Shown piece by piece: positions 21,688-44,813 of a stretch of 64,000 bases of DNA. Origin of the DNA: Candidatus Iainarchaeum sp. (GTDB taxonomy: Archaea > Iainarchaeota > Iainarchaeia > Iainarchaeales > GCA-2688035); the NCBI GenBank assembly GCA_017610205.1, contig JAFCCL010000001.1:157199-221198 (forward strand). Reading direction: 5' to 3'. The notes under the pieces were generated by a model. It saw nothing but the letters and a program-made list of their open reading frames with translations, had not been told where the DNA came from and searched no databases. The position numbers were made by a program, and so were the translations under genes. Position 1 is the first letter of the stretch. Every line of letters begins with the position of its first letter.

Positions 21688-21815
21688 AATAGTTAAAAAA
21701 ACCGCTTGGAAATAGTTTAAATACATTCCATTCCAGCTAATCTTATAGAACATTTTTTTTCCTCGAAAAATAAAGCGGCAAAAAGCAAACGCTATCTTGT
21801 CGCAAAAAAAATTAT

Positions 21816-21899
21816 GCCAACGTGGCGGAGTGGTCAAACGCGCTCGCCTTGAGAGCGAGAGTCCGAGAGGGCACGCAGGTTCAAATCCTGTCGTTGGCG
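21816..21899 (+). tRNA. tRNA-Ser(TGA), integration target
   Basis: Acceptor GCCAACG/CGTTGGC. Anticodon stem CTCGC/GCGAG with loop CTTGAGA. Long variable arm. T arm GCAGG-TTCAAAT-CCTGT. 84 nt. Confidence 0.9.
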
Positions 21900-21958
21900 T
21901 CTTTCTCCAATTCAATCGCCCTTGCCCCCTGCATTTAAATGGGTTTCGGTTGAGGGAG

Positions 21959-23164
21959 ATGAAAAGTATGAGGGAATACATTCACCCCTACAAGAAAAAC
22001 CTTGAAAGGGAAATTCAACGAATAAAGGAATCTGAGCTGCTTGGGGATAACAAGCAGTTGATTCTGAAATTCTATCAGCACAACATGGCTCAAGAGCACA
22101 GCCTTCCGAGAATGGAACGGCAAGCCTGTGTTCTAAGAAAGGTTGCCGAGTGGCAGAAAAAGGATTTCAGGCAGTTAACCAAAGAAGACTATGTGGCTTT
22201 CATTGCCTGGATGCGCGAAAAAGAATACAAAGACGGAACCATCTGGACATACAAACAAATACTTATGGTCTTTCACAAATGGCTCAACAACGGAGTAAAG
22301 CCAGAGTGCATTGCATGGTTCAAGCTCAAAAAGCTGTTCAATAATACCTTGCCAGAGAACCTAATTACGCCGGAAGAAGCCAAAAGGCTGATTAAAGGAG
22401 CGGATAAAAAGCGTGACAAGGCATTGATTGCCTCTCTTTGGGAAACAGGAGCGCGTATCGGTGAGCTTGGGTGCCTGAAAATAAGGGACGTTACCTTTGA
22501 TGAATTTGGTGGAAGAGTTCTCCTAAACGGCAAAACAGGTATGAGAAAAGTCAGAATTGTTCACAGCGCACCATACATTTTGGACTGGCTTAACGAACAC
22601 CCTTTTAGCAAGGACGTTGATGCCCCACTTTGGATTTGCTTTGGGCAAAAGACCTGTGAAAGGGTTTGCTACAACACAATAGTCAAAGTGCTTTTGATGG
22701 CAAAGGCAAGAGCAGGAATAAGCAAGCCTGTCAACCCACATCATTTCAGGCACAGCAGGGCAACATACATGGCTCAGCATCTAACAGAAGCCCAGATGAA
22801 AGAATACTTTGGATGGGGGCAGGATAGTAGAATGGCTGCACGATATGTTCACCTTTCAGGCAAGCAGGTTGACGACGCAGTTCTGAGAATGTGCGGCCTG
22901 AAGAAAAGAGAGGAAGAAAAGGATATCCTAAAGCGCGAACCTTGTCCCAGATGCAAATTCCTGAACGAAATTAACTCAGATTACTGCCAAAAATGCTGGA
23001 TTCCTCTAAGTCCACAAGCTACAAATGAAATTCAGGAAACAGAAGACAAAAGCCAAGAAAGCGTAATCAGCCTAATGAAATTGCTTGAATTAGTTGGAAA
23101 CAACCCGGGAAAAGTGCGGCAGGCACTCACAATCCTGCAACAAGACACTACAAGGAGGTTTTAG
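21959..23164 (+). CDS. int: tyrosine recombinase / integrase
   Basis: ASLWETGARIGELGCL (box I Arg), HHFRHSRATYMA (HxxR) and GW...MAARYVH (catalytic Tyr). Trimmed from the track start 21797, which reads through the tRNA. Confidence 0.9.
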   Translation: MKSMREYIHPYKKNLEREIQRIKESELLGDNKQLILKFYQHNMAQEHSLPRMERQACVLRKVAEWQKKDFRQLTKEDYVAFIAWMREKEYKDGTIWTYKQILMVFHKWLNNGVKPECIAWFKLKKLFNNTLPENLITPEEAKRLIKGADKKRDKALIASLWETGARIGELGCLKIRDVTFDEFGGRVLLNGKTGMRKVRIVHSAPYILDWLNEHPFSKDVDAPLWICFGQKTCERVCYNTIVKVLLMAKARAGISKPVNPHHFRHSRATYMAQHLTEAQMKEYFGWGQDSRMAARYVHLSGKQVDDAVLRMCGLKKREEEKDILKREPCPRCKFLNEINSDYCQKCWIPLSPQATNEIQETEDKSQESVISLMKLLELVGNNPGKVRQALTILQQDTTRRF

Positions 23165-23333
23165 AATGGGAATGGGAACATTTTTACAGCAAAATAAGAC
23201 AAAAAACCAATTGGTAGAAACAAACAGATTATTGAAAGAGCAAAACCAATTGCTAAAAGAAATCAAGGAATTACTGGAAAGAAGACAATAGAATTTTAAT
23301 AGGGTTTTTGAGTATTCAACTAGTAGGCACACT

Positions 23334-24074
23334 GTGGCGAATATGGTTAGAGGTAATGAGGCAATGGAAAGCAAGCAAAAACCCGACAAAGCAGAACATA
23401 ATGATGGTCTTTGTATAGACTGGTCTAAATGCAAGTATAAGTCTGTGAGGAGTTGCTCACTTTCGTTTTATGCAAGAAATTTAGAGATTAAACTAAGCGA
23501 AAATCATTTTTTGTCTTTTAGCGAAGAACTAAAAAAATTTTATCAGAGTTATTTAGAAGAAATGAAAAAGTCAATCAAGCAGTGTTGTAAAAATGACAAG
23601 CCGCCTTCACCCGGTGACCGAAAGAAAAATACTCAAATATTTACCAAGGCCCTGATAGGTCTAATATCGGATGTTATTGACGTTCCAAAAGACGAGATAA
23701 TATCAGAAAAGCGCGTAACATTTATGGATAAGAGAAAACTAGAGAAACCAATAGACCTCTACATACCTAAAATAAATACTTTTATTGAAATAAAATATGT
23801 CTTAGACTTCAATCATGTTGGTTCGGCTCTATTTGAAGCAATTCTCTGCAAAAAGTTGAAAAATATAAGGTTCCTAGTAGTCGGATGGTATGATTCCGCG
23901 CAAGAAAGAAAAGATTGCTTTGCTTATAACGAAATACTAGATAACGAAAAACTACCGGAGCTAAAGAACTACATAGACGGAATATTTGCACTAAACCCGA
24001 AATATGGAACAAAGCAAGCTGAAAAGTTTGTATCCAAACTAAAGGAGTATGCCAAGGGCCAAGCAGTTGTCTAA
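23334..24074 (+). CDS. PD-(D/E)xK-like nuclease candidate (possible restriction endonuclease)
   Basis: KPIDLYIPKINTFIEIKYVLDF fits the hhD...ExK core. It lies next to the methyltransferase genes. ATG alternatives are at 23343 and 23364. Confidence 0.45.
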   Translation: MANMVRGNEAMESKQKPDKAEHNDGLCIDWSKCKYKSVRSCSLSFYARNLEIKLSENHFLSFSEELKKFYQSYLEEMKKSIKQCCKNDKPPSPGDRKKNTQIFTKALIGLISDVIDVPKDEIISEKRVTFMDKRKLEKPIDLYIPKINTFIEIKYVLDFNHVGSALFEAILCKKLKNIRFLVVGWYDSAQERKDCFAYNEILDNEKLPELKNYIDGIFALNPKYGTKQAEKFVSKLKEYAKGQAVV

Positions 24075-24604
24075 TCTTATAACTGAATTTTGTTCAACCT
24101 GACGATTGCTTCAATCAACCCTTGCTCCAGCTTATTCAATTTACCTTCAAGGTTTTCAATTCGCTCACTCAAATTGTAAAAGCTTCTCTGCGGTGAATTA
24201 GTGCTAAACCCTATCTTTGTCAAGTCCCTCATCCTTCCTTCCCTCCAAAATTTTTTCCAACTGCTGTAGCGCAAAAACAAAGGCTTTCCCGTGCACCTGT
24301 TCAAAGTGCCGCAAGTTTCGATAACGCACAACTAACAGCACCCCCTTCTCCTTTCTTGCCCTTTTCTTTCAATTCCTTCCACTGCTTATATTTTTCAAGC
24401 AGATAACACAGTGGGGCAGCGTTGTCCTTTTTGAACTCCTCAAGCTTTGGAGCACACCCTACCTGCAAAATTGTCTGGATTCCATCCACAATCAACCACC
24501 TCAAACAGAAACCTGTTCCCAGCGTTTAAATAGGTTTTGTGAAAAAATTAAGCAGAAAGCATTGCAAGCTTTATTTAAAAATAGTTTCAAATAGGCTTAT
24601 TCTT

Positions 24605-25987
24605 ATGGCTAAGGAAGAAAGAAACTGGCATCCAAATTTCAAAAAATACATGGAAAAAATAATACAACATCCTAACTACACAGGAATGCCCGAAATTCAC
24701 AAAAAAGATGGTTCTATCCTATGGATTACTGCAGGCAAAGGCAGAATAGGCAAAGAACGCACTAAATGGTGGGACAAAAAAAGAGAAGAGCTAGGAATAG
24801 ATAAAAAAATCAAATGGATATCAGAAACAGCAAAAAAAAATCATCCAACCGGGAGAAAACCTTGCCAAATCTGTGGCGAGGAAATGGAATTGGCTTATGT
24901 TTATCCATACGTAGGCGTTCTCGCAAAAATTAATGCAATTCCAAAAATAAATGGTTTTTTTGATGTATATTATTCCATTAATGATATAATCAAAGAAGGT
25001 GCAAAGCTTGGAGGAGAAGAATTCTTCAAGGAACTGAGGAAAATATTTAAAATTCCTGCAAAAGTTAAGGATTCTGTTGAAGCATTTCAATCTTATATAA
25101 CCGAAAATTGTAAAACCAAGCTCAGTCCAGGTGCAATGAGCAACGCTCCAGACAGGCTTGATGGCTTTCACACTTACAATAAATGTTGCAGAGCAACGCA
25201 TGACACTGGAAGACATAAGTCTAACCTGCAACGTTATGTCCAAGACAGAAGAGCATATGAAAACTGGGCCGAAGGAGATTGGAAAGCCGCTGAAAGGCTG
25301 ATGGGAGAATTCCATAAACATGGTTTAAGCGCTGACCATATAGGGCCCATATCGCTTGGCTTCTGTCACCGAGCAAAGTTCCAGCCTATGAGTAGAGAAG
25401 CAAACTCTGCTAAAAACAATCGCATGTCATTGAACGATGTTCAAATCCTTCTTGCAGACGAAGCAAAAGGCCAAAAGGTTGTTTCATGGCACTCCAAATT
25501 CGTTTGGGATGCATTGAAAAGTAGAGTGAAAACAGATGCGCAAGCCAAACTTGTGAGCAGGCTAATGAGAAAAAATCTTCATCACGTGCTCAGCATTTTT
25601 GCAAAAATAAATGCCGAGGACGGGAAAGAATTCCTAATTAGGAACTTTCTACACCCAGAACATTCCTATTATGATGTAAAGTTCACTGGATTTAATCCAG
25701 AAACAGGCGGGTTTGAAAAGATGAAAAAAATCGAGGGCGATAAGAAGCAATACAAAAATAATGTTCAACGGTACATTCGCATATCGTTTGAATCACTGGG
25801 CCATTATATTGACAAAGACAATCGTGTCGTTAGCAGCTGGAACAATCTTAAAGTGGATGAGGTGCTTTCAAAAGCAGTGGCTTCATTGAAAGCAGGGAAT
25901 GAAGATACTTGCAAGGAAAACCTTTCAAATACACTGAAACTATTAGCGGAAGATGCAGTGAAAGAATTTGAATCAGAACAAGTATGA
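24605..25987 (+). CDS. candidate restriction endonuclease (zinc-ribbon CxxC + HNH/beta-beta-alpha-Me-like motif)
   Basis: CQICGEEMEL, and LSADHIGPISLGFCHRAKFQPMSREANSAKNNRMSLNDV (DH...N...N spacing). Converges on and overlaps the C5-methyltransferase gene by 15 nt. Trimmed to ATG 24605. Confidence 0.5.
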   Translation: MAKEERNWHPNFKKYMEKIIQHPNYTGMPEIHKKDGSILWITAGKGRIGKERTKWWDKKREELGIDKKIKWISETAKKNHPTGRKPCQICGEEMELAYVYPYVGVLAKINAIPKINGFFDVYYSINDIIKEGAKLGGEEFFKELRKIFKIPAKVKDSVEAFQSYITENCKTKLSPGAMSNAPDRLDGFHTYNKCCRATHDTGRHKSNLQRYVQDRRAYENWAEGDWKAAERLMGEFHKHGLSADHIGPISLGFCHRAKFQPMSREANSAKNNRMSLNDVQILLADEAKGQKVVSWHSKFVWDALKSRVKTDAQAKLVSRLMRKNLHHVLSIFAKINAEDGKEFLIRNFLHPEHSYYDVKFTGFNPETGGFEKMKKIEGDKKQYKNNVQRYIRISFESLGHYIDKDNRVVSSWNNLKVDEVLSKAVASLKAGNEDTCKENLSNTLKLLAEDAVKEFESEQV

Positions 25988-27148
25988 GGGCAGCTTCTTT
26001 TTAATACACACTTCATAAAATTGAGCAAACGTCTTTTTTCCCATCAGAAATTCTTGGTAAGGAGAATAAAGCTCGCCGTCAAACAAAACTTCCATTTCGC
26101 CACTGTTTGGCTTTAAAGCAGGCAAGCCGTAAATAGCATCCTTGACTGTTATAAATGAAGGCAAACCATCAGAGCCATCAGAAAATAGTGGCTTAGGTGA
26201 AGCCAACTTTGTTTCAGTTCTAAACCCAGTAATGAAAACTCTTCTCCTCCTCTGAGGAACACCATATTCTTCAGCCTTAAGTTTCCAAGGCTCATTAACA
26301 TGATAACCAATGCCCTCAAAAGCCTCAACTATTTCTTTAAGAGCTGCTCCTTTTCTCATAGAAAGTATGCCTGGAACATTTTCCATCACAAAAGCTTCAG
26401 GTTTTATTTTTTTGACTAAGTCAACAAAGTGAACAAAAAGGTCATTGCGTGCATCCTTTGGATTCCTCCAACCAGCATGAGAAAATCCTTGGCAGGGTGG
26501 ACCTCCAACCACTACACCAATTTTGTATTTTTTTGCTAGACTGGAAAGTCTTTCTTTATTTTTATTTTCGCGAATATCGCCTAGTATACAGAAAGCAGGA
26601 TCTATTTCAGGATTGTTTTTGAGGAATGTTTCAAAAAAGCGTTTTTCTATTTCAATGGCTCCAACAACATCAAAGCCCGCTAGTTTAAATCCTTCAGAAA
26701 AACCACCTGCACCGGAAAAAAGGTCGATTGTTTTGTCGCTATTAACATGCTTCTTGACTTCTGTTGCAACTGCTCTTGCTAAGAGTGGAGGAACAGCATT
26801 GCCTATTTGTTTAAACTGTGAAGTTTTTGCGCCATGAAAAATGAAATTGTCTTTGAATGATTGCAGTCTTGCACCTTCTCTTAGAGAAATAAGTCTGTTT
26901 TGGGAAGGGTGTATATGGCAACCGTTTCCAATTCTGTTAAAGTATGTTGAAATAGTGTAACTTGGTTTGTCATATCGTAAACGACCATAATAAGTGGTTC
27001 TGCCACCGCTTTCTCTTATTTGCTTTAAACGTTGTGAAGGAATGTGCGGAGGGATGCTTGCCCAATTTCCCCCCGGCGGGATGTGGTTAACCATCTGCAT
27101 TTCTAATTGGCTAAAGCCGGGCGTTATATGGTTATGTAGTTTTCTCAT
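25973..27148 (-). CDS. DNA (cytosine-5)-methyltransferase with circularly permuted motif order (IX-X before I-VIII)
   Basis: N-terminal RLISLREGARLQSFKDNF (IX) and QIGNAVPPLLA (X). Then DLFSGAGGFSEGF (I), GGPPCQGFS (IV), FVMENVPGIL (VI) and GVPQRRRRVFITG (VIII). Confidence 0.85.
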   Translation of the reverse strand: MRKLHNHITPGFSQLEMQMVNHIPPGGNWASIPPHIPSQRLKQIRESGGRTTYYGRLRYDKPSYTISTYFNRIGNGCHIHPSQNRLISLREGARLQSFKDNFIFHGAKTSQFKQIGNAVPPLLARAVATEVKKHVNSDKTIDLFSGAGGFSEGFKLAGFDVVGAIEIEKRFFETFLKNNPEIDPAFCILGDIRENKNKERLSSLAKKYKIGVVVGGPPCQGFSHAGWRNPKDARNDLFVHFVDLVKKIKPEAFVMENVPGILSMRKGAALKEIVEAFEGIGYHVNEPWKLKAEEYGVPQRRRRVFITGFRTETKLASPKPLFSDGSDGLPSFITVKDAIYGLPALKPNSGEMEVLFDGELYSPYQEFLMGKKTFAQFYEVCIKKKLPSYLF

Positions 27149-29099
27149 TGTAAAACAGCCTAATATAGTTAATTTCTCTAGAATTTAAACCATACTGTTT
27201 GAAAATCTCTTCCTCAAGTTTTTCATTATTTTTTGCATCTAAAAGCCCTTTTTGCGGGAGGATGATGGGCAATTCTCCTAGTTCGTAGTTACTTATATGA
27301 TTGTTGTAGTTTGATATTTTGAATCGCCAGTTCAATAATTTTGAGTTCAACAGCTTTACGAGAACCTCGTTAGAGATTCTTTTATCTTCACTCAAAAGGT
27401 AATTGCAAGAATTTGCAACAATAGTACTTTCTGGCACCATTCTAAAATTTAGTTTTTTAACTAAATCCACGTTAGCAATTTGCTGGCCGGCAATTCTCTC
27501 CTTTTGGATGTCCTCTATTTTGTTTGAACTGACTTTAGTTAGAAAGTTTTTTTGAACGAAAGCTTTTTTCGCAGTGCTTTTTATATCTTTTCCTCTAACC
27601 AAAGACAGGAGCGTTTCTCTCTCCGTTATATACTTTTTGTCCTGAGTTAGGTCTAATTCGCCTCGTTTGTTTCTGATTAGCGTAAATTCTTTTAGTTTTT
27701 TGAAAGAGTTGAGCTTTTTTAGAACAGACCATCCAACTGAATCTAACAACGGTATTTCTAATTTTGAGAAATTTTCTTTTATGTCGTTTATGTCAATCAG
27801 AACCTTTTCATCGTTTTTATTATGAAGTATTGATTCCATTTTACTTGTTTTCTCACCCTTTTTTACTTGAATTATCACTAATGATTGATTAACATTTTGA
27901 AAAAGCTGATTCTGTTCTTTGAAAAAATGCACTTTACTCAAATTACATTCAAGCAAAAGAGCTTTTCTTAAATCATAGGCACTGGAATCCCCTAGTAAAG
28001 TTGAAGGTATTATGGCTCCAATTGAACCTTGACTATTTGTTATCTTCAAGGCAATTTCTAAAAACAAACGATAATAGTTCAACATTCCTTTAGCTGAAAG
28101 AGGATATAGCTTTGAATTGTGAATAAAATTCTTTTCCTCTTCTACTCTATCCTTTTCCTGTTGATAAATTTCATTCAAGATTTTGGGCGAAATTTCTTTT
28201 GTTGATGCCGTGAAAAAATCACTTCTGTTTATTTTCAAAACTTTGTAAGGAGGATTCATAACAACCGCGTCAAATCCGCCTTGATTTTCAAAAACGTTTT
28301 TGAACGCGCTAAAGAAAGAGAATCGCTTTTTAGGGGATTTGCTTAAACCATAAATAGCGTTCCCAACAACTATCTGCTTCTGCAACTTCTTTATAGCCTC
28401 TAATCTTTGTTCTTTGGGAAATTCGTTTGCAAGTCTTAGGATTGTTATATCAACGGAAATAGAATCAATATCAGTACCATACAAGTTATTCAAAGCTTTG
28501 TCTTTATCTTTTGCTAAAGCCAGACAGGAAAGGAGGAAACGGCCAGTACCACAACCTAAGTCAATCACTTTGTTGTTCTCCACATCCTCCACAGTTTCAC
28601 TACAAATAAGATTAGAAATTTCTTTTGGAGTAAAAAATAGACCTTTTCCTTTTAGTCCTGTTTTCTTTTTCTTAATCTTTCCATTCTCAAAAAACTTTGA
28701 GTTAAACCATTGCTGTTGTTCAACCAGCGTATCCAAAACATTAGAAAAGTGGTTTTTAGTTTTTTTCTCAAGTTTATCTACAAGGAGTGAAGTAGAAGAA
28801 GAATCAAAGGTATTGAAGAGCCCTTCCTTTTTAACAAAATTCTCAAACTCAGAATATGTTTTAAATTCCATATTCCAGCTATTAAACCACCGATAAATCA
28901 AAAATTTTACAATAGTTTCATGCACCCTTCTATGCGATTCCTTAAATTTTGCTAGAATAGGCTCTTGTAAAAGCTCTTCCTGTTCCAGAGATTCTAATAA
29001 CTGCAAATCCTCAACCACCGTATTATAGATGGAAATACCGCTTTTAAATCTATCAAGAGAGAGGGTTTCCGGTGAAATATTAAAAAGTGCGGCAGTCAT
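27132..29099 (-). CDS. N6-adenine DNA methyltransferase (gamma-class, Eco57I/TaqI-like) with large target-recognition C-terminus
   Basis: GLFFTPKEISNLI (motif X), VIDLGCGTGRFLL (motif I), AVVMNPPY (motif IV). Trimmed to ATG 29099, which overlaps the upstream small ORF stop (ATGA). Confidence 0.85.
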   Translation of the reverse strand: MTAALFNISPETLSLDRFKSGISIYNTVVEDLQLLESLEQEELLQEPILAKFKESHRRVHETIVKFLIYRWFNSWNMEFKTYSEFENFVKKEGLFNTFDSSSTSLLVDKLEKKTKNHFSNVLDTLVEQQQWFNSKFFENGKIKKKKTGLKGKGLFFTPKEISNLICSETVEDVENNKVIDLGCGTGRFLLSCLALAKDKDKALNNLYGTDIDSISVDITILRLANEFPKEQRLEAIKKLQKQIVVGNAIYGLSKSPKKRFSFFSAFKNVFENQGGFDAVVMNPPYKVLKINRSDFFTASTKEISPKILNEIYQQEKDRVEEEKNFIHNSKLYPLSAKGMLNYYRLFLEIALKITNSQGSIGAIIPSTLLGDSSAYDLRKALLLECNLSKVHFFKEQNQLFQNVNQSLVIIQVKKGEKTSKMESILHNKNDEKVLIDINDIKENFSKLEIPLLDSVGWSVLKKLNSFKKLKEFTLIRNKRGELDLTQDKKYITERETLLSLVRGKDIKSTAKKAFVQKNFLTKVSSNKIEDIQKERIAGQQIANVDLVKKLNFRMVPESTIVANSCNYLLSEDKRISNEVLVKLLNSKLLNWRFKISNYNNHISNYELGELPIILPQKGLLDAKNNEKLEEEIFKQYGLNSREINYIRLFYNEKTT

Positions 29100-29305
29100 C
29101 TGACCACCGCTAAAATCTTTGTTTTTTCCCTGTTTACTTCTTCTTCGAGAAGTTGATTGAGTTTGGCTGCAAGCTCTGCCTTGCATTCAACTAAGTCGTC
29201 TGACTCGTCAAGCTCAACAGAAGCTCCGAGGCAGATACCTTTAGTTTCGTAGTTCCCAAGATTCACTTTCTGGGAAAGGTTCATGGAAAGGCTTCTCACA
29301 TTCAT
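29096..29305 (-). CDS. small hypothetical protein, first gene of the methyltransferase operon
   Basis: 69-aa ORF whose stop overlaps the N6-MTase ATG by 4 nt. No known motif. Confidence 0.45.
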   Translation of the reverse strand: MNVRSLSMNLSQKVNLGNYETKGICLGASVELDESDDLVECKAELAAKLNQLLEEEVNREKTKILAVVR

Positions 29306-32574: not shown

Positions 32575-32749
32575 ATTGTACTAATTTTTAAACGCCAAAG
32601 TTGTTTTTAAACAAAGGTCTTTTTGTGCAGAATGAGGATTTTATTTGATTTTTTTTATTAGCCCCTTTTCCGCATAATACTTTCACTAAACCCTTTTATA
32701 CTGCTTCGGCAGAGTAGTTTGCTTTAAGTCATTAAAGAGGTGATTTGAA

Positions 32750-33049
32750 TTGAACAAAAAATTAACAATACTGTTCCTGGCCCTGCTATTAGTTCTGCCA
32801 ATCGCTTTCGCTGAAGGCGATGTAACAGCCATAACAGAGCCATTGACCAGAATCTATGACTTGCTGAAAGGAGTTGTTTCAGTCGTGGCAGTCATAGCCA
32901 TAACAATTGCCGGTGCCAGATTTATGTTCTCAGGCGACAACATCCAGCAAAGAGAAGCAAGCAAAACAATGGTAGGCTACTGCATAATGGGCTTGGTAGT
33001 CGTATGGGTTGCACCATTAATGGTCAGTTACTTAACAGCCCCAATATAA
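32750..33049 (+). CDS. TrbC/VirB2-like pilin
   Basis: 99 aa. Signal peptide LLLVLPIAFA|EGD, then two hydrophobic helices (VVSVVAVIAITIAGARFMF, MVGYCIMGLVVVWVAPLMVSYL) separated by the charged loop SGDNIQQREASKT. TTG start with SD aagaggtga upstream. Confidence 0.7.
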   Translation: MNKKLTILFLALLLVLPIAFAEGDVTAITEPLTRIYDLLKGVVSVVAVIAITIAGARFMFSGDNIQQREASKTMVGYCIMGLVVVWVAPLMVSYLTAPI

Positions 33050-33065
33050 AAGGAGGAATGTACAA

Positions 33066-34055
33066 TTGAACAGAAAAATTTACGAAGTGTGCGTTCCCTT
33101 CCTTTTTCTGATGTTTCTCGGCAGAGCCTTTGCATTAAATGAACCAATGCCGCCGCCAATAGTAAATATTGACTTGGGAATAATATCAGAAGCAATAAAC
33201 CAAATGTTCACAGGACTAACCCAGTCACTAACAGAACTGCCCGCCGCCGTAGTAAACCAATTCCTTGCCTCACTACAAAGCCTTACCGCAAACTTTCTTA
33301 CAACCCTACTGTTAATAGCAAAAGAGTTTATAACAACAAACCCAGACATCGCACCAATGTTTCCACTATGGCAAACAATAGTTTACATAATTTCACTATT
33401 CTACCTAATACTCTTTCTCATAGTAGGCTTCTTTTTCTTATTCAGCTCAATTGACGCAGAAAAAAGAACAAGCGCAAAAAAATGGTTCAAAAGCACAATC
33501 ATAATGATTGCCGCAGTCGGCGCATCCTTCCAACTATACGAAATATTTCTAGCAATAGGAGCAGGAGTAGCTACATATTTATGGGCATCAGAATTCGAAG
33601 TACTATTCCAAGCAAGCGAACTCACAGCACTAAACCTAATCCTGCTAACAGTTTACAGTGGAGCAGTCCTCGCCGCATTCATAACACTTTTCATCAGACA
33701 CCTGTTCCTTGTAATGGGCGCAGCAATATTTCCAATAGCCCTATTCTTCTACTTTATAGAACCGCTAAAACCCTGGGGGAAAATGCTGCTCGAAATTCTC
33801 TTCGCCGCAGTCCTCATGCAAATAATTGATGTAATAATCTTCATCGGCTCACAAATTGTCTGGGAACAATTCATAGGTCTGCCAGACATTGCAGGCTGGG
33901 CGCCAACAATGGCCTTTGGCTTAGTCGCAATCATAAACACAATAATAATTGCATTCGCAGTAATAAAAGCATCAAAAACAGTAACCCAACAACTACCAGA
34001 AGTAGTCGCCGTAGCAAAAATGGCAGGCACAGCCGCAATAGGAGCAATAGCATGA
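33066..34055 (+). CDS. polytopic membrane protein, VirB6/TrbL-like by position and topology
   Basis: 329 aa with 6 or more TM helices, immediately after the pilin gene. TTG start preceded by aaaggagg. Confidence 0.55.
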   Translation: MNRKIYEVCVPFLFLMFLGRAFALNEPMPPPIVNIDLGIISEAINQMFTGLTQSLTELPAAVVNQFLASLQSLTANFLTTLLLIAKEFITTNPDIAPMFPLWQTIVYIISLFYLILFLIVGFFFLFSSIDAEKRTSAKKWFKSTIIMIAAVGASFQLYEIFLAIGAGVATYLWASEFEVLFQASELTALNLILLTVYSGAVLAAFITLFIRHLFLVMGAAIFPIALFFYFIEPLKPWGKMLLEILFAAVLMQIIDVIIFIGSQIVWEQFIGLPDIAGWAPTMAFGLVAIINTIIIAFAVIKASKTVTQQLPEVVAVAKMAGTAAIGAIA

Positions 34056-34074
34056 ATAAAGAGGTGAAAGAAAA

Positions 34075-34383
34075 ATGAGTTTATGGTTTTTTTCTTCTGT
34101 CTTCGCCGCTTCTCCGTTCCGAAAATTCTCCAGGGTAGTTTTCTGCAGGTTTTGGTTTTTTAAGTTTCTTAAAAACCTTTTGTCGCAACATGCCTGGCAA
34201 GGTAAACCACTCCACGCGTTCTTTTGCATGAGGAGGAGTACTGTGCCTTCTTTCTTGTCCTGTTCTTCTCTCTTTTCCACTTCTCCTTTCCGGACCGGTA
34301 TATTTAGGTTTTGGTCTTGGCATCCAATTTCACCTATAAACTCTACACATTCAAAGAATTTAAACCTTTGCAGGTGTGACTAA
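34075..34383 (+). CDS. small hypothetical protein (aromatic/Cys-rich), translationally coupled to the next gene
   Basis: SD agaggtga sits 7 nt upstream of ATG 34075. The stop TAA shares one nt with the next ATG (TAATG). The composition is odd, and an antisense ORF (34081-34323) with ERRSGxxRR repeats also exists. Confidence 0.4.
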   Translation: MSLWFFSSVFAASPFRKFSRVVFCRFWFFKFLKNLLSQHAWQGKPLHAFFCMRRSTVPSFLSCSSLFSTSPFRTGIFRFWSWHPISPINSTHSKNLNLCRCD

Positions 34384-35321
34384 TGCCTTACGAAATACCC
34401 CAAAACCTAAAATACAAAGAAAAAATTGCCTTCAACCTCACATTCGAACAAATGGCCTGGCTTGGAGTGTTCGGAACAATAGCCGCAATAATTTACCTAA
34501 AAACAGGCCTGCCTTTTCCGATAAAAGAAGGAATTGCACTATTGATTGCATCAATTGGATGCGGGTTTGCATTCCTAAACTTTACAGAACACCTAAAAAC
34601 ATTCAGAACCTACAAAAAAAGCATTAACAAAGCAGGCTATTTTGACCCAAAAATGCGCCAGCTCGTCGACGTCAAAAAAATAGAAAAGGACGTAATCTTC
34701 TTGAAAGACGGTTCAATGAGAGCCTTGCTGCAAATTACGCCATTGAACTTTTCAATGCTTTCAAAAAACGAACAGCAGGCAATAATAAAAGCCTACAAAG
34801 ACTTTCTCAACAGCATGGACTTCACAGTACAAATAGTTGCAAGAACAGTAAACCTCTCACTCGAAAGCTACCTCAGAACACTTCACGAAAAAGCAGTTCA
34901 ATCAAAAAACGAAAAATTAGTCGAACAATTCGAATCATTCAGAGAATTCCTAAACCAATTCATAGAACAAAACGCAGTCAAAGACCGGCTGTTCTATTTG
35001 GTAATTCCAAACAGCCAAGAAAACGGAATTTTCCTATTTAAAAGCCAGCAAAAAACAGAACAATCCCTAAAAGAATTAGACATCAGAGTAAAGTTATGCC
35101 AGCAAAAACTCAAAAAATGCAACCTCCTCACAAAACACCTGAACTCGGAAGAGCTCACCTCACTTATGGCTAGCTTCTTTCACGGATTCATAGAAGCCCA
35201 AAACGAATACTTCTTCCCAACAACAATGCTAAAAAAATTCGAAAAACAAAACCCAATTAGAAAATGGATTGACCTAAACGGTTCAGAACAAACAATCCAA
35301 AACGCAGGAGTGACAGCATGA
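34383..35321 (+). CDS. PrgI/VirB3-like 2-TM segment fused to a VirB4 N-terminal domain
   Basis: YEIPQNLKYKEKIAFNLTFEQMAWLGVFGTIAAII (PrgI-like), then IEKDVIFLKDGSMRALLQITPLNFSMLSKNEQQAIIKAYKDFLNSMDFTVQIVARTVNL, as in the N-domain of Gram-positive-type VirB4 (PrgJ/TcpF-like). Confidence 0.65.
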   Translation: MPYEIPQNLKYKEKIAFNLTFEQMAWLGVFGTIAAIIYLKTGLPFPIKEGIALLIASIGCGFAFLNFTEHLKTFRTYKKSINKAGYFDPKMRQLVDVKKIEKDVIFLKDGSMRALLQITPLNFSMLSKNEQQAIIKAYKDFLNSMDFTVQIVARTVNLSLESYLRTLHEKAVQSKNEKLVEQFESFREFLNQFIEQNAVKDRLFYLVIPNSQENGIFLFKSQQKTEQSLKELDIRVKLCQQKLKKCNLLTKHLNSEELTSLMASFFHGFIEAQNEYFFPTTMLKKFEKQNPIRKWIDLNGSEQTIQNAGVTA

Positions 35322-35500
35322 ACGAAACACTTGATAGCAAATGGAAAAAAGCAATAATACAAATAGCAACAGAACTTCGCAAGGCTAATCAAATAAGTGC
35401 GGTAATCGGAAATGGGCTATTAGGAAAAGAGATTGGTCAAATAAAAGAAAAAAAGAAAAGATTCAGCGAAATAGAAAAAATAAGAAAAGGCGTTAGCTAA
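35318..35500 (+). CDS. small hypothetical protein
   Basis: 60 aa. Its ATG overlaps the preceding stop (ATGA). Confidence 0.4.
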   Translation: MNETLDSKWKKAIIQIATELRKANQISAVIGNGLLGKEIGQIKEKKKRFSEIEKIRKGVS

Positions 35501-35513
35501 TTATTGTTTTTAA

Positions 35514-36824
35514 ATGGTTTCTTGCTCATTTAAGAATATGGAGTTAGATGAAGATGAAACAATTACTCTGAAAGATGCTGTTTCTCGAGAAGGAGCTTTT
35601 CTTAGAGATAAATTAGCGGAACATTTTAGTGATGACAACCTTTTAGAAGTACATGCAATAGAACATCCTGTTTGTTTTGATGGTCAAAAAAGAAGAATTG
35701 ATCTTATTCTAAAAACTAGGAAAAGAGGTATATGCCCGTTTGAAATTTTTTTTGTAATCGAAGTGAAGAAGCTAAACCGCAAACATTCTGCAATAATAAG
35801 CTTTGGCGATCAAGAGAAAAGAGATTTTTTCTATGCAAGTGTTTTAGGCGCTGACCCGGAAGTAAAAATTATTCGAGAAAAGCAAAGAAACGTAATTGAA
35901 ACAACCAATAAAATAGACTTTTTTAGTGATTTTTGTGCCTTTGACAAAAAAATTTTAGAAAAAGTAAAGAAACAGAAACCAAAAGCAATACTTTCTAATG
36001 TAAGACTAAATCGTAAAGACGAAACCAATCAAGCTTTGCAACAAGCATATCAAGGAACCTGTGGATTTCTAAAAGAATTAGAAACCAAATATGGCGTTGG
36101 TTTTAAGCGACTTTCAGGTGGAAAATTAGAAATTGACAGAAACCGGTATATTATCCCTGTTGTAATAACTACTGCTGAGTTTACTCTTGCATTATTGGAT
36201 TTGAATAAATATTCTCTAGAAACAGGCGAATTCAAAAACGAAAGCCTAAAGTTAAAACCAAGTAGTTGGCACGCTATAAAATATTCAGAAGCCCGATTAA
36301 CAGCTATTGAAGACCCATTTGTTGAACAAGAAATATTTGTTGTGAATACAAGCAATCTTGACAAGTTCTTTAAAGAAATAGTCGCCTCTGTATTGCGCCA
36401 CCATTTCAAATTTACTCAATTAACTCAAAGGAATAAAAAAATAGGGCCCTTAATTAAAAACCATAATGACAAAATAAAATCTATAAAATATGTCGATATC
36501 CTGCATTTAGTTACCAAAAAGAACCTGTGGGGCAGATTTAGAGATTGGTTTAAATCGGATTTGATAAATGATGAAAATCCATTCGGTTTGGAACGACTTA
36601 AAACCGATTTAGACGATAGAATAAATTCAGATCCAGATCTTTTCAAGCTTACAGTATACTTAGTTTCTATTTACTACAATGACAAATGGGTGTCTGGTTC
36701 ACCGCAGTCCTTAGAACTTTGGCTAGGAGCGAACTACTATCGGCATATTATAGAATTTTTCGATTTTTTGAAGCTTTCCGATATACAAGAGCTTGTCTTT
36801 GAAAAGAAAAATTATTCTGTATAA
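35514..36824 (+). CDS. PD-(D/E)xK (NERD-like) nuclease-domain protein sitting between the two VirB4 parts
   Basis: EHPVCFDGQKRRIDLILKT...FEIFFVIEVKKLN fits E...D...ExK. The C-terminal ~250 aa are unassigned. Confidence 0.55.
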   Translation: MVSCSFKNMELDEDETITLKDAVSREGAFLRDKLAEHFSDDNLLEVHAIEHPVCFDGQKRRIDLILKTRKRGICPFEIFFVIEVKKLNRKHSAIISFGDQEKRDFFYASVLGADPEVKIIREKQRNVIETTNKIDFFSDFCAFDKKILEKVKKQKPKAILSNVRLNRKDETNQALQQAYQGTCGFLKELETKYGVGFKRLSGGKLEIDRNRYIIPVVITTAEFTLALLDLNKYSLETGEFKNESLKLKPSSWHAIKYSEARLTAIEDPFVEQEIFVVNTSNLDKFFKEIVASVLRHHFKFTQLTQRNKKIGPLIKNHNDKIKSIKYVDILHLVTKKNLWGRFRDWFKSDLINDENPFGLERLKTDLDDRINSDPDLFKLTVYLVSIYYNDKWVSGSPQSLELWLGANYYRHIIEFFDFLKLSDIQELVFEKKNYSV

Positions 36825-36872
36825 CCTTTTCACTCCTCCTTTTTATACTCCTTGAGTTGAGTAATAAGGCTT

Positions 36873-39101
36873 ATGTCAAAGCAGACTCAAAGTATCTTGG
36901 AGCCTTTACTAAAGCCTTCTTTTGTCAAGAATTCGCCGGACTGCATTCAGATAAACGAAAACTATAATCGCATTATAATGGCTGTCGGCTACCCGCGACA
37001 AATAGAAGAAGGCTGGCTTGACCGAATAATTTCTTCGGAGGGAAGCTTTGATTTAAGCATGTTTATTGAACCTGCCTCAATTGAATTCATTTTAGGGGAA
37101 TTAAACAAAGAGCTTGTGAAACAGAAAAGCGACATCATGGCAGCTGAACTAAAAGGAATTGTAAACCCCATCCTGCGCGTTCAGTATGAAGACACCTACA
37201 CAACACTGCAAAGACTACAGACCGGTGAAGAAAAGTTATTCAACTTTTCTTTTTATGTAAATGCAAGAAGCTATGACAAAAACGAACTGAACTTGTTGAG
37301 CAAAAAGATTGAATCAGAACTCAATAGCATAATGATTATTCCAAAAACACCCTATCTCAAAATGCAACAAGGCATCCAGTCAATTGTGCCAGTCTGCAAG
37401 GACAGACTTCGCGCTCAAAGAAACATTCCAAGCAACGCACTCTCAGCCTGCTTTCCGTTCACCTCGCGCTTTTTGAACCTTGACGAAGACGGAGTAATGT
37501 TTGGTGTAAACCAATCAAACAACATTCCAATAATCCTAAACCAATACAAGTTCACAAATTACAACGGTATTGTTTTAGGAAGCAGTGGTGGAGGAAAAAG
37601 CTTCTTTGTCAAGCTTTACATTATCCGCAATCTTTTGAAAGGAATGCAGACATACATAGTGGACCCGCAAGGGGAATACTCAGAACTGACACAAAAATAT
37701 GATGGTCAGATTGTAAGCATTTCAAGAAAAAGCAAAACCATAATCAACCCATTGGACTTAATGGACCGTGATTTTGGCGACAAAATGCTTTCTTTAATGG
37801 ACTTGTTCAAAATAATGTTCGGCGAACTAACAGAAGTGCAAAAAAATGTTCTGGACAAAGCACTAATCAAAACATATGAGCAAAAACACATTTTACCAAA
37901 CCAGCCTGAAACATGGAACGCAAAACCACCAATCCTGGAAGACTTGTACAATGTTTTGGAAAAAGAATCAAAGAGCACAAACAAAATTGAAAAAATGACA
38001 TATGATGCTTTACTCAACAGGCTGAGAATTTATGCAAAAGGAAGCTTCTCATTCCTAAACAAGCACACCTACCTTAACCTTGAAAAAAAGCTTATCTCAT
38101 TTAACATAAAAGAAATGCCTACCCAAGTCAAGCCCCTAATGATGTTTCTTATACTTGACTTTATTTACGAAAAAATCCAAAAAGACCACGAAAGAAAACT
38201 TATTGTTGTGGATGAAGCATGGCAGCTGCTCAGATACGGAGAACACGCAGAATACCTGTTTAAAATATGCAAAACAGCAAGAAAATTTGGTGCGGGACTA
38301 GCAATAATTACCCAAGAAGTCAACGACTTACTAAATTCACAGGCTGGAAAGACCATTTTAGCTAATACTGCCTGGAAACTGTTAACAAGACAAGAACCAG
38401 CAGTAATAAACGAGCTAATAGAAAAATTCAACTTAAACAAAGAAGAAAAAAACTTTCTGCTGACAGTTGATGCCGGCGAAGGCCTGCTGTTTGCAATGAA
38501 TGACAGAATTCCAATCAAAGTTGTGGCATCTGAAAAAGAATACGACATTATCACAACAAACCCAGAAGACCTGAAGAAAAGGCAAGTGTTAAGAGAAAAA
38601 ATTTCACTAGAAGAAGACTTCAACGAAGAAGTCTACGGACTAAAAAAAAGCTATTATCAAGTTAACGAGTTAAACGAAAAGCAAATTGCGTTCCTAAAAG
38701 CAAACGGCTATAAAGAATCAAGACAGCTTGGTTTAGAACCAGGAGGCGCACACAAATACCTAATAGGCATGCAACCAGAAAATGAAGGAACAGACCACGC
38801 ATTTCTTGTGCAACTACTTTACGAGGAAATCAGCAAAAAAACAGACAAAGTAATGCGCTACGCCGTTCAAAAACCAGACCTTGTTTTTGTAGCAAACGAA
38901 AAAAGATACGCAATCGAAGTAGAAACAGGAAAAAACCTCTCAGACAAAAACAAAATGAAAGAAAAATCAAAAAAACTAAAAGAATTTGAACAAGGACTAT
39001 TCGTAGTAACCGACTGGAAACTAAAAACAAAATACAAACAATACGGAAAAACACTCGGAAGATTCGAAGTAAAAAAAGAATTAGAAAAATTGTTTCGCTG
39101 A
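36873..39101 (+). CDS. virB4: VirB4-family T4SS ATPase (middle + ATPase domains) with C-terminal PD-(D/E)xK-like extension
   Basis: IIMAVGYPRQIEEGWLDRII, Walker A LGSSGGGKSFFVK, Walker B KLIVVDEAWQLL, and AGLAIITQEVNDLL. The tail (38625-39098) has GTDHAFLV...KPDLVFVANEKRYAIEVETGKN. Confidence 0.85.
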   Translation: MSKQTQSILEPLLKPSFVKNSPDCIQINENYNRIIMAVGYPRQIEEGWLDRIISSEGSFDLSMFIEPASIEFILGELNKELVKQKSDIMAAELKGIVNPILRVQYEDTYTTLQRLQTGEEKLFNFSFYVNARSYDKNELNLLSKKIESELNSIMIIPKTPYLKMQQGIQSIVPVCKDRLRAQRNIPSNALSACFPFTSRFLNLDEDGVMFGVNQSNNIPIILNQYKFTNYNGIVLGSSGGGKSFFVKLYIIRNLLKGMQTYIVDPQGEYSELTQKYDGQIVSISRKSKTIINPLDLMDRDFGDKMLSLMDLFKIMFGELTEVQKNVLDKALIKTYEQKHILPNQPETWNAKPPILEDLYNVLEKESKSTNKIEKMTYDALLNRLRIYAKGSFSFLNKHTYLNLEKKLISFNIKEMPTQVKPLMMFLILDFIYEKIQKDHERKLIVVDEAWQLLRYGEHAEYLFKICKTARKFGAGLAIITQEVNDLLNSQAGKTILANTAWKLLTRQEPAVINELIEKFNLNKEEKNFLLTVDAGEGLLFAMNDRIPIKVVASEKEYDIITTNPEDLKKRQVLREKISLEEDFNEEVYGLKKSYYQVNELNEKQIAFLKANGYKESRQLGLEPGGAHKYLIGMQPENEGTDHAFLVQLLYEEISKKTDKVMRYAVQKPDLVFVANEKRYAIEVETGKNLSDKNKMKEKSKKLKEFEQGLFVVTDWKLKTKYKQYGKTLGRFEVKKELEKLFR

Positions 39102-43715: not shown

Positions 43716-44813
43716 ATGGATATAGAAAAGCTAAAAACACTTGCCCTTAAACTTCAGGGCGAATTATTAACTTCGAGTAGAAAATATTTGTCAGATGAAA
43801 AAATATCACATACCAAATTGATAGACCTTCACGAAAATGCGCAAAAAATACTGCCGGACCATAAAACCCTTTTTGAAAGACATATAGAAACTTTAAAAGA
43901 TCCAATTCTGTATATAACAACAAAAGAAGCAGCCGATTTATGTAAAGATATTTTTGAATATGCTATTTTAGAAGACGATAAAAAGGAAAAAAGTGAAACA
44001 CTCGCTAAAGACCCACTTACTGATTTATTTGAAAAGAATAAATTAGCGGAGTTAGATTTTTCTAAATATAAAGAACTTTCAATTGCCTTTCTTGATTTAG
44101 ATAATTTCAAAAAAATAAACGACAAATACAAACATAATAAAGGCGATCTTGCACTAATACAAGTTGCCTCTGCACTAAAGGAAATTGTAGGAAAAAATCA
44201 TTGGGTTTTAAGAAACCACGGCAGTCGAGGAGATGAGTTTATAGTTGTTTTTTTAGATTTAGAGAAAGAAAAAGCATTTAGATTAATTGAAGAATGCAGA
44301 AAAAAAATAGAACACAATAAAGTTGAAAATTTCAACATAACAGTTAGCATCGGTATTGCATCATATCCTAATGATGGAAAAACTCTAAATGAGATTATAG
44401 AAAAAGCCGATGAAGCAATGTATCTTTCTAAAGAAAACGGAAGAAATTGCACGACTCTCTATGATGAAAGCATGGTAAATGAAATAGAAACTATTAATTT
44501 TAGACTTGAGGAAATTGCTAATATAAAAAATGGGGCTAAAGTCATTGTAAAAAGTTGGAAGTGTCATCAGGCTCCTAATATAACTAATTTAGAAGCAATC
44601 GAACTAAGAGACTTAGATGAAGATATCCTGTATACTAGTAGAAATAAAGGCGGAATGGCGACTATTATAACCATTGAAAAAGAAATTCGTGGCGTTGTTA
44701 GAGGGGTTAAAAGGCCACCAGGGCAAACGTTATTTGAATTAGTGGTTCAAAAAAAGCAACTAGAAGGAATTTCATCAGATCCAAAGGATTTTTTGAGTCC
44801 TTTAGTTAGATAA
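43716..44813 (+). CDS. GGDEF-domain (diguanylate-cyclase fold) protein with RGDEF motif and unknown N- and C-terminal domains
   Basis: DPLTDLFEKNKL, IAFLDLDNFKKINDKYKHNKGD, HGSRGDEFIVVF (RGDEF at 44226-44240), VSIGIASYP, and ADEAMYLSKENGRNC. Confidence 0.8.
   Translation: MDIEKLKTLALKLQGELLTSSRKYLSDEKISHTKLIDLHENAQKILPDHKTLFERHIETLKDPILYITTKEAADLCKDIFEYAILEDDKKEKSETLAKDPLTDLFEKNKLAELDFSKYKELSIAFLDLDNFKKINDKYKHNKGDLALIQVASALKEIVGKNHWVLRNHGSRGDEFIVVFLDLEKEKAFRLIEECRKKIEHNKVENFNITVSIGIASYPNDGKTLNEIIEKADEAMYLSKENGRNCTTLYDESMVNEIETINFRLEEIANIKNGAKVIVKSWKCHQAPNITNLEAIELRDLDEDILYTSRNKGGMATIITIEKEIRGVVRGVKRPPGQTLFELVVQKKQLEGISSDPKDFLSPLVR

Follow-up and report, generated by a model that had tools for sequence, protein, structure and literature searches.

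The TrsD protein stands alone and is homologous to the N-terminal portion of VirB4 (PMC12102498), and the arrangement of TrsD next to VirB4 in a type IV secretion system (T4SS) has been published for the pGO1-type plasmids of the mating-pair-formation class MPF-FATA and for Patescibacteria (Quinonero-Coronel et al. 2025, PMC12102498). Here we describe a T4SS locus in a 64,000-nucleotide stretch of contig JAFCCL010000001.1 of Candidatus Iainarchaeum sp. (positions 157,199 to 221,198; the whole stretch is called the window), where virB4 is present as two pieces with a gene for a PD-(D/E)xK nuclease-like protein between them. The initial annotation had proposed either that a nuclease cassette invaded and split virB4, or that VirB4 of this lineage naturally consists of two pieces and has a nuclease as its dedicated partner. 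The insert lies in the intergenic gap of a virB4 that already consisted of two genes, and it is not the cause of the split, because relatives without an insert are also split. Most probably the locus contains an ordinary two-gene VirB4 of an integrated archaeal T4SS element, with a permissive gap and a promoter of its own for the ATPase gene, and the nuclease-like gene is a passenger that neither caused the split nor belongs to the secretion machinery.

As in the TrsC-TrsD-TrsE (TraC-TraD-TraE) set of pGO1/pSK41 and the patescibacterial TrsD + VirB4 pair, the first VirB4 module is separate, lies just upstream of the ATPase gene and is found near a VirB3/PrgI anchor. Unlike these systems, the host is an archaeon of the Iainarchaeota and the genes reside on an integrated element, the VirB3 and TrsD-like modules are fused in one protein of 312 amino acids (aa), the two pieces flank a conserved 60-aa gene, the ATPase has a PD-(D/E)xK-like domain at its C-terminus, and the gap serves as a cargo slot that ends at a second promoter-like element. 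The novelty is modest in scope: the split itself is of a known kind, and what is undescribed, as far as the searched literature goes, is the archaeal setting, the VirB3-TrsD fusion, the conserved micro-protein, and the slot bounded by a duplicated promoter-like element.

A different comparison is provided by phage Aeh1, in which nrdA is reportedly split by the free-standing homing endonuclease mobE to leave a "genes in pieces" ribonucleotide reductase. Both loci have a nuclease-type gene between two halves of an enzyme that works as separate polypeptides. In Aeh1 the endonuclease insertion reportedly made the split and close relatives have the intact gene, whereas in the window the split is older than the insert and is also found in relatives free of any insert.

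VirB4 encoded in separate genes

The four open reading frames (ORFs) of the initial annotation are all present on the plus strand, at 34383-35321, 35318-35500, 35514-36824 and 36873-39101. The first, the N-piece, encodes the 312-aa protein in which a PrgI/VirB3 membrane anchor is fused to a TrsD-like (PF26593 TraC-like) first VirB4 module. Residues 5-90 match PrgI PF12666 with 33.7 bits (gathering cut-off 27), two hydrophobic stretches are visible in the N-terminal sequence, and PF26593 is recorded for both the N-piece and its relatives. The protein covers positions 3-286 of 894 in the NCBIfam model VirB4_plasma (NF045975, a VirB3-VirB4 fusion model), 4-168 of 752 in the CD1110-type VirB4 model (NF045971), and 24-198 of 201 in the TrsD/TraD model NF041427 (E 1.7e-7). 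The score against NF041427 is 31.3 bits, far under the curated cut-off of 200, and by this profile comparison the N-piece is a distant TrsD relative outside the curated subfamily.

The C-piece (36873-39101, plus strand, 742 aa) comprises what remains of the N-domain, followed by the P-loop ATPase and by a C-terminal PD-(D/E)xK-like extension that is conserved. It matches positions 292-893 of NF045975, 195-751 of NF045971 and 238-726 of TIGR00929, and PF19044 is matched above its cut-off (1.2e-26). Because the matches start at position 292 of NF045975 and 195 of the CD1110-type model, the C-piece is without the first VirB4 module and has no complete N-domain; its score against NF045971, 308 bits, falls below the cut-off of 325 that applies to a full-length single polypeptide. 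Both the Walker A motif GSSGGGKS and the Walker B motif DEAW are invariant in an alignment of 20 C-piece sequences.

The model ranges 3-286 and 292-893 of NF045975 confirm the proposal that the first and second VirB4 segments sit in separate ORFs. The same join is seen against the fused 1029-aa relative P0097, where residues 1-276 of the N-piece pair with 1-271 (46% identity) and residues 12-742 of the C-piece with 290-1025 (58% identity). The two pieces abut without loss, with nothing missing or duplicated between them.

The C-terminal extension of the C-piece (38670-39101, residues ~600-742) has the PD-(D/E)xK-like pattern PDLVF ... EVETGK, in which H642, D669, E682, T685 and K698 are invariant across 20 relatives, and it is also found in the fused P0097. 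Judged by this residue pattern, the conserved nuclease-like module of the system is the extension and not the 436-aa protein encoded in the gap.

Immediately after the N-piece lies a gene for a conserved 60-aa protein (35318-35500, plus strand), which is coupled in translation to the N-piece, its start codon overlapping the N-piece stop as ATGA. Ten loci have homologues of 53-64 aa in this position (25-72% identity), where they overlap or directly adjoin the stop of the N-piece, and these loci reach VirB4 identities down to ~55-60%. The 60-aa ORF gave no usable match in PHROGs or PADLOC. Its ratio of nonsynonymous to synonymous substitutions (dN/dS) is 0.08-0.21; the N-piece has 0.06-0.21 in comparison with the related loci L001 and L003, and the C-piece 0.02-0.04. 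Four cargo-free loci (L008, L023, L027, L065) have the stop of the 60-aa gene abutting or overlapping the start of the C-piece. The 60-aa protein appears to be a third component of the VirB4 motor module. Loci of another subclade (L024, L028, L029, L033, L034, L038, L052 and L063) have two conserved micro-ORFs in its place, one of 37-44 aa (LPxILYxGKKYFVDHRLxEMRN...) and one of 46-59 aa that ends in ...QLPSGE.

The extent of the two-gene form was followed through 94 fetched loci, in which each ORF was scored with profiles of both pieces. Both parts could be scored in 57 loci, mostly from DPANN archaea (Iainarchaeota), and of these 45 are split, the window included, and 12 are fused. Stand-alone N-pieces number 68 proteins of 208-335 aa in a protein search restricted to similar lengths, while the C-piece search returned hundreds of proteins of ~740-790 aa and a minority of fused forms of ~880-1040 aa. 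Across 215 genomes of the phylum, this VirB4 is found in 43, with full-length frames that are nearly all 747-789 aa; three are fused and one contains an intein. The fused loci belong mostly to Methanosarcinales and Woesearchaeota metagenome-assembled genomes (MAGs), together with two small groups within the split clade.

Within the split loci the N and C genes are adjacent or overlapping in 40 of 45. The distance from N-piece stop to C-piece start is at most 14 bp, or negative through overlap, in 20 loci, 89-430 bp in another 20, and at least 890 bp in five: the window (1551 bp), L001 (1160 bp), L003 (1195 bp), L009 (891 bp) and L010 (1695 bp). The 1551 bp of the window are accounted for by the small ORF and the cargo gene that lie between the pieces. 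All relatives with at least 60% identity are split, with or without an insert, and the fused forms are more distant. An unrooted tree built from the ATPase part places the window together with L001 and L003 (SH-aLRT 100, 88-93% identity), followed by L004 and L007, and the three members of the innermost group carry three different inserts.

These results show that the idea of a secretion motor broken by a nuclease, attractive as it is, is wrong. The two-gene TrsD + VirB4 motor is also the rule in mobile elements of the Iainarchaeota, with the VirB3-TrsD fusion and the 60-aa protein added to it, and split virB4 genes in genomes of this type should not be called pseudogenes or invaded genes.

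In a distant clade of metagenomic loci (L067-L083, 27-31% identity), N-pieces of 290-326 aa have a stop that overlaps the start of a ~600-aa VirB4, which is without the C-terminal extension; this overlap indicates that the two-gene form reaches far beyond the Iainarchaeota. Two other relatives have a LAGLIDADG intein in the VirB4 ATPase, P0155 (1251 aa) and a 1259-aa frame in G109:C35, located near Walker A at query residues ~241-245. With these inteins, virB4 of the family has indeed been invaded by a selfish element and, as in the window, a nuclease-bearing element is associated with virB4 of the same protein family. The P0155 intein is in frame and spliced out of the protein, whereas there is no intein in the window, where the insert forms a gene of its own within an intergenic gap.

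The variable gap and the leader of the ATPase gene

The borders of the gap are visible in DNA alignments, where conservation breaks off at the small ORF's stop codon and returns ~58 nt before the ATG of the C-piece. What lies between differs from locus to locus. The window has the nuclease-like gene (436 aa, 428 aa from its probable start), L001 has genes for membrane proteins of 151 aa and 127 aa, and L003 has a 290-aa secreted protein with a signal-peptide-like start. L091 contains a 158-aa homologue of the 151-aa protein of L001, L092 another membrane protein of which only the C-terminal end is present, L004 a 109-aa protein, and L007 is empty. In L094 (2492-3334) the slot protein has 281 aa or more, contains the HEPN-like (Rx4H) motif RNQGAH, and does not match the VirB4 profiles. 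Among further relatives, L009 (6168-7007) has a 279-aa ORF without a Pfam match whose GGKGYHLHV motif we take to recall primase-polymerase domains, and L010 (2782-4208) has four minus-strand genes, one for a 240-aa protein and three for small helix-turn-helix (HTH)-like proteins. Nine slot proteins were tested against Pfam without a significant match; sub-threshold matches were to Bac_rhodopsin for the 127-aa protein of L001 and to weak HTH-type families for two of the small L010 proteins.

The right border of the slot is a conserved leader at 36815-36872 on the plus strand, TTCTGTATAACCTTTTCACT...CCTTTTTATAC, which is read as a second copy of a promoter of the module. Its consensus, TTCTGyATAAyCyTTTCACT ... 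CyTTTTTATAC ... ATG, occurs in the window and in L001, L003, L091 and L092; L004 has a weaker version of it. The leader has been kept although synonymous sites of the flanking genes are near saturation (dS 0.7-4). A paralogous promoter-like element, TTCCGCATAATACTTTCACT then CCTTTTATAC, precedes the pilin gene at 32668-32730 on the plus strand; the second leader copy within it lies at 32668-32687, ~65-80 nt ahead of the pilin gene. Nowhere in the window does another non-self match to the C-piece leader score better than this region upstream of the pilin gene, whose score only 4 of 5000 shuffles reach, and the same pairing of pilin and C-piece elements is present in L001, L003 and L091. A pattern search of the window gave 3 matches with at most 3 mismatches against 0.08 expected. 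The third and weaker of these (3 mismatches to the promoter-associated motif TTCTGYATAAYCYTTTCACT) is at 24538-24557 on the minus strand, pointing leftwards at the start of an Alw26I-type endonuclease gene, and may be due to chance.

The shared part of the leader is closed by a TATA-like box, CCTTTTTATAC, centred ~27 nt before the ATG at 36873. A spacing of ~27 nt from TATA box to ATG is usual for archaeal leaderless transcripts, and the position of the box suggests that the C-piece transcript is of this kind. The ATPase C-piece is probably transcribed from its own promoter. Cargo-free elements have no such leader, and their genes are coupled directly. A search for RNA structure in the C-piece leader found none (z-score -0.83).

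The slot borders were also compared with shuffled sequences for direct repeats and target-site duplications. The short shared words AATTATT in the window and TACAAG in L001 were no better than shuffles, and the one better border match, in L001, is a TATA-like box; this comparison provided no evidence for transposition or site-specific insertion at the slot.

We envisage that an integrated mobile element of an Iainarchaeota archaeon carries a minimal T4SS module whose VirB4 motor would be built from three polypeptides, the VirB3-TrsD-like N-piece, the ~60-aa protein and the ATPase C-piece, presumably assembling non-covalently in the way that is thought to apply to TrsC/TrsD/TrsE of pGO1-type plasmids and to patescibacterial TrsD + VirB4. 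In the subclade of the window, a duplicate of ~60 nt of the pilin upstream region precedes the C-piece and probably acts as promoter for the ATPase piece, so that insertions into the gap would be tolerated. It is equally possible that events ran the other way, with the promoter having been fixed after the first insertion. Sister elements have different, unrelated genes in the gap, and in the window it is a rare nuclease-like cargo of lower G+C at third codon positions (GC3). A duplicated promoter-like element next to a gap that collects passengers offers a small testable case of an operon architecture that creates an insertion hotspot.

A stronger version of this idea, for which we see limited odds, is that the gap is a maintained cargo slot of Iainarchaeal T4SS elements, insulated from the ATPase gene by the duplicated module promoter, in which sister elements swap unrelated ORFans. 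These ORFans could be defence, exclusion or host-interaction genes that are expressed together with the transfer machine. If true, the slot would be an archaeal counterpart of the accessory and anti-defence hotspots of bacterial conjugative elements, and a source of new nuclease families.

The nuclease-like gene and competing explanations

The cargo gene occupies 35538-36824 on the plus strand when read from ATG 35538 (428 aa), or 35514-36824 from the first start (436 aa). The later ATG is the probable start because Met9 is invariant and the N-termini of homologues begin there. The protein begins with a nuclease-like core, continues with an alpha/beta part in the centre and ends in a helical part. 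The nuclease core motif reported in the initial annotation is borne out by the family, since E50, D63, E83 and K85 (E...RIDLIL...IEVKK) are invariant across its six members. The gene is an ORFan. A word-based protein search returned only the 436-aa protein itself, and HMMER found five relatives among 1.84 billion representative proteins, three with 30%, 26% and 38% identity and two at ~E 1e-3. The family is very rare and so far undescribed.

The 436-aa protein has no Pfam match of its own and no usable match in PHROGs or PADLOC, and a sequence search of the PDB with the family profile gave noise only. Five sub-threshold Pfam matches of family members (best 0.002) are all to PD-(D/E)xK families: PDDEXK_9, HSDR_N_2, YhcG_C, PDDEXK_11 and Mrr_cat_2. 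AlphaFold models reached a predicted local distance difference test score (pLDDT) of 33 from the single sequence and of 62 from the six-sequence alignment. With the latter model, Foldseek against the PDB gave no significant match (best E 0.095, nucleases at E 0.4-4), and the weak list is rich in PD-(D/E)xK nucleases, namely Cas4-like SSO0001, Card1, NucC, HamA, Bax1, RecU and TnsA. Motif, profiles and model together make it probable that the cargo protein is PD-(D/E)xK-like. A predicted activity as a restriction- or defence-type accessory nuclease is a tentative assignment, to which we give somewhat less than an even chance.

Four of the relatives could be traced, all of them in contexts other than the virB4 slot. 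The gene for P0190 (locus L005) is not in virB4 and has an integrase/HTH block on one side and a T4SS pilin gene on the other, P0191 (locus L006) lies behind two methyltransferase genes and an HNH gene, and P0193 and P0194 are on short uninformative contigs. These varied contexts bear on the possibility that the gene is a site-specific, homing-type mobile gene that targets the gap without having caused the split. The nuclease-like core would suit such a gene, as would an insert of essentially one gene with sharp borders against conserved flanks and a GC3 of 0.25, below the 0.39-0.42 of the neighbouring VirB4 pieces. We consider it improbable, given that the genome contains no second copy, that no homologue is found at the gap in other loci, that flanking repeats do not rise above chance, and that the slot also takes genes that are not nucleases.

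The distribution of the gene is also central to the second proposal of the initial annotation. Its two-piece half holds, as a natural two-piece VirB4 is the known TrsD + VirB4 arrangement, and its other half, a dedicated nuclease partner, finds no support. Such a partner could be, for example, the DNA-processing enzyme of an element in which a relaxase was not identified. The gene is confined to one of 215 phylum genomes, with no copy in the other 214, of which 42 have a C-piece-type VirB4; the same slot in every related locus is without it, and sister slots hold unrelated genes. The gene does lie on the same strand within the T4SS row with short spacers, a scan of window ORFs found neither a relaxase nor a coupling protein, and the L005 homologue is in another element that bears a T4SS pilin. 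That copy, in turn, does not adjoin virB4, and the L006 copy sits among methyltransferase and HNH genes. A dedicated partner is on this evidence very unlikely.

The first proposal, that a selfish free-standing homing-type nuclease cassette cut an intact virB4 into two working genes, draws its appeal from the position of a lower-GC3 nuclease-like gene exactly between the VirB4 parts, and from the existence of fused VirB4 genes in the wider family. The nearest fused forms, however, are ~58% identical or less, and the nearest split forms 73-89%. Insert-free relatives are split too, some with overlapping N and C genes, and close relatives with an uninterrupted virB4 at the insertion point were not found. 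The conserved 60-aa gene also lies between the pieces, sister elements have non-nuclease genes at the same spot, and the endonuclease gene does not recur at the site. With the split common to 45 of 57 scorable loci, most of them without an insert, this proposal is scarcely credible. Equally slight is the chance of a decaying T4SS with a broken, non-functional virB4, which the insertions within the gene row and the lack of an identified coupling protein or relaxase nearby might suggest, because the N-piece, small ORF and C-piece are intact without internal stops, Walker A and Walker B are kept, and dN/dS is 0.02-0.21 at high dS, which indicates purifying selection.

An ordinary two-gene VirB4 with a passenger in its gap is the reading we prefer, and several considerations count against it. 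The tree does not decide between a split and a fused ancestor, because it is unrooted. The nuclease assignment draws on a motif, sub-threshold profiles and a mediocre model (pLDDT 62), with no Foldseek E below 0.09. Finally, co-transcription of the nuclease-like gene with the T4SS genes is conceivable, so that a role linked to transfer is possible.

The surrounding element

The window has a G+C content of 36.5%, and the nearest relatives of its T4SS genes are in MAGs named Candidatus Iainarchaeum, Diapherotrites and Micrarchaeota (DPANN archaea). The VirB4 C-piece occurs in 43 of the 215 phylum genomes yet is missing from all six further genomes of the same genus, which fits a mobile element. 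Upstream of the T4SS row a tRNA-Ser(TGA) gene (21815-21901) is overlapped by a tyrosine-integrase gene (21797-23164). Behind the integrase lies a restriction-modification cluster with an Alw26I-type restriction endonuclease (RE_Alw26IDE, 3.7e-132) followed by C5 and N6 DNA methyltransferases, the latter of the Eco57I/N6 type with a TaqI_C domain. This integrase and restriction-modification stretch (21797-29186) is a cargo region of the T4SS-bearing element.

The plus-strand row begins with the gene for a VirB2/TrbC-type T4SS pilin of 99 aa (32750-33049; PF18895 2.2e-13, PF04956 8.5e-12) and continues with a VirB6/TrbL-like polytopic membrane protein of 329 aa (33066-34055), the four ORFs described above, and a weakly transglutaminase-like protein. 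The VirB6/TrbL-like protein of the window has a weak Pfam match of its own; its counterpart in L001, also 329 aa, carries PF19590 TrbL_3.

The VirB6-like gene is separated from the N-piece by a spacer of 327 bp (34056-34382), where L001 has 42 bp and L003 has 0 bp. The spacer contains a 42-nt imperfect direct repeat and a minus-strand ORF for a very basic 80-aa protein (MPRPKPK..., with repeated ERRSGKERR motifs), and no further copy of it was found in the genome. L091 and L093 have small basic minus-strand ORFs at the same position, one of which starts with MPRPRKRK, and the spacer may represent another variable slot, or else an antisense micro-gene that is conserved. A GGDEF-domain protein (43716-44813; PF00990, 1.3e-29) adjoins a TrmB-type regulator, on this archaeal element.

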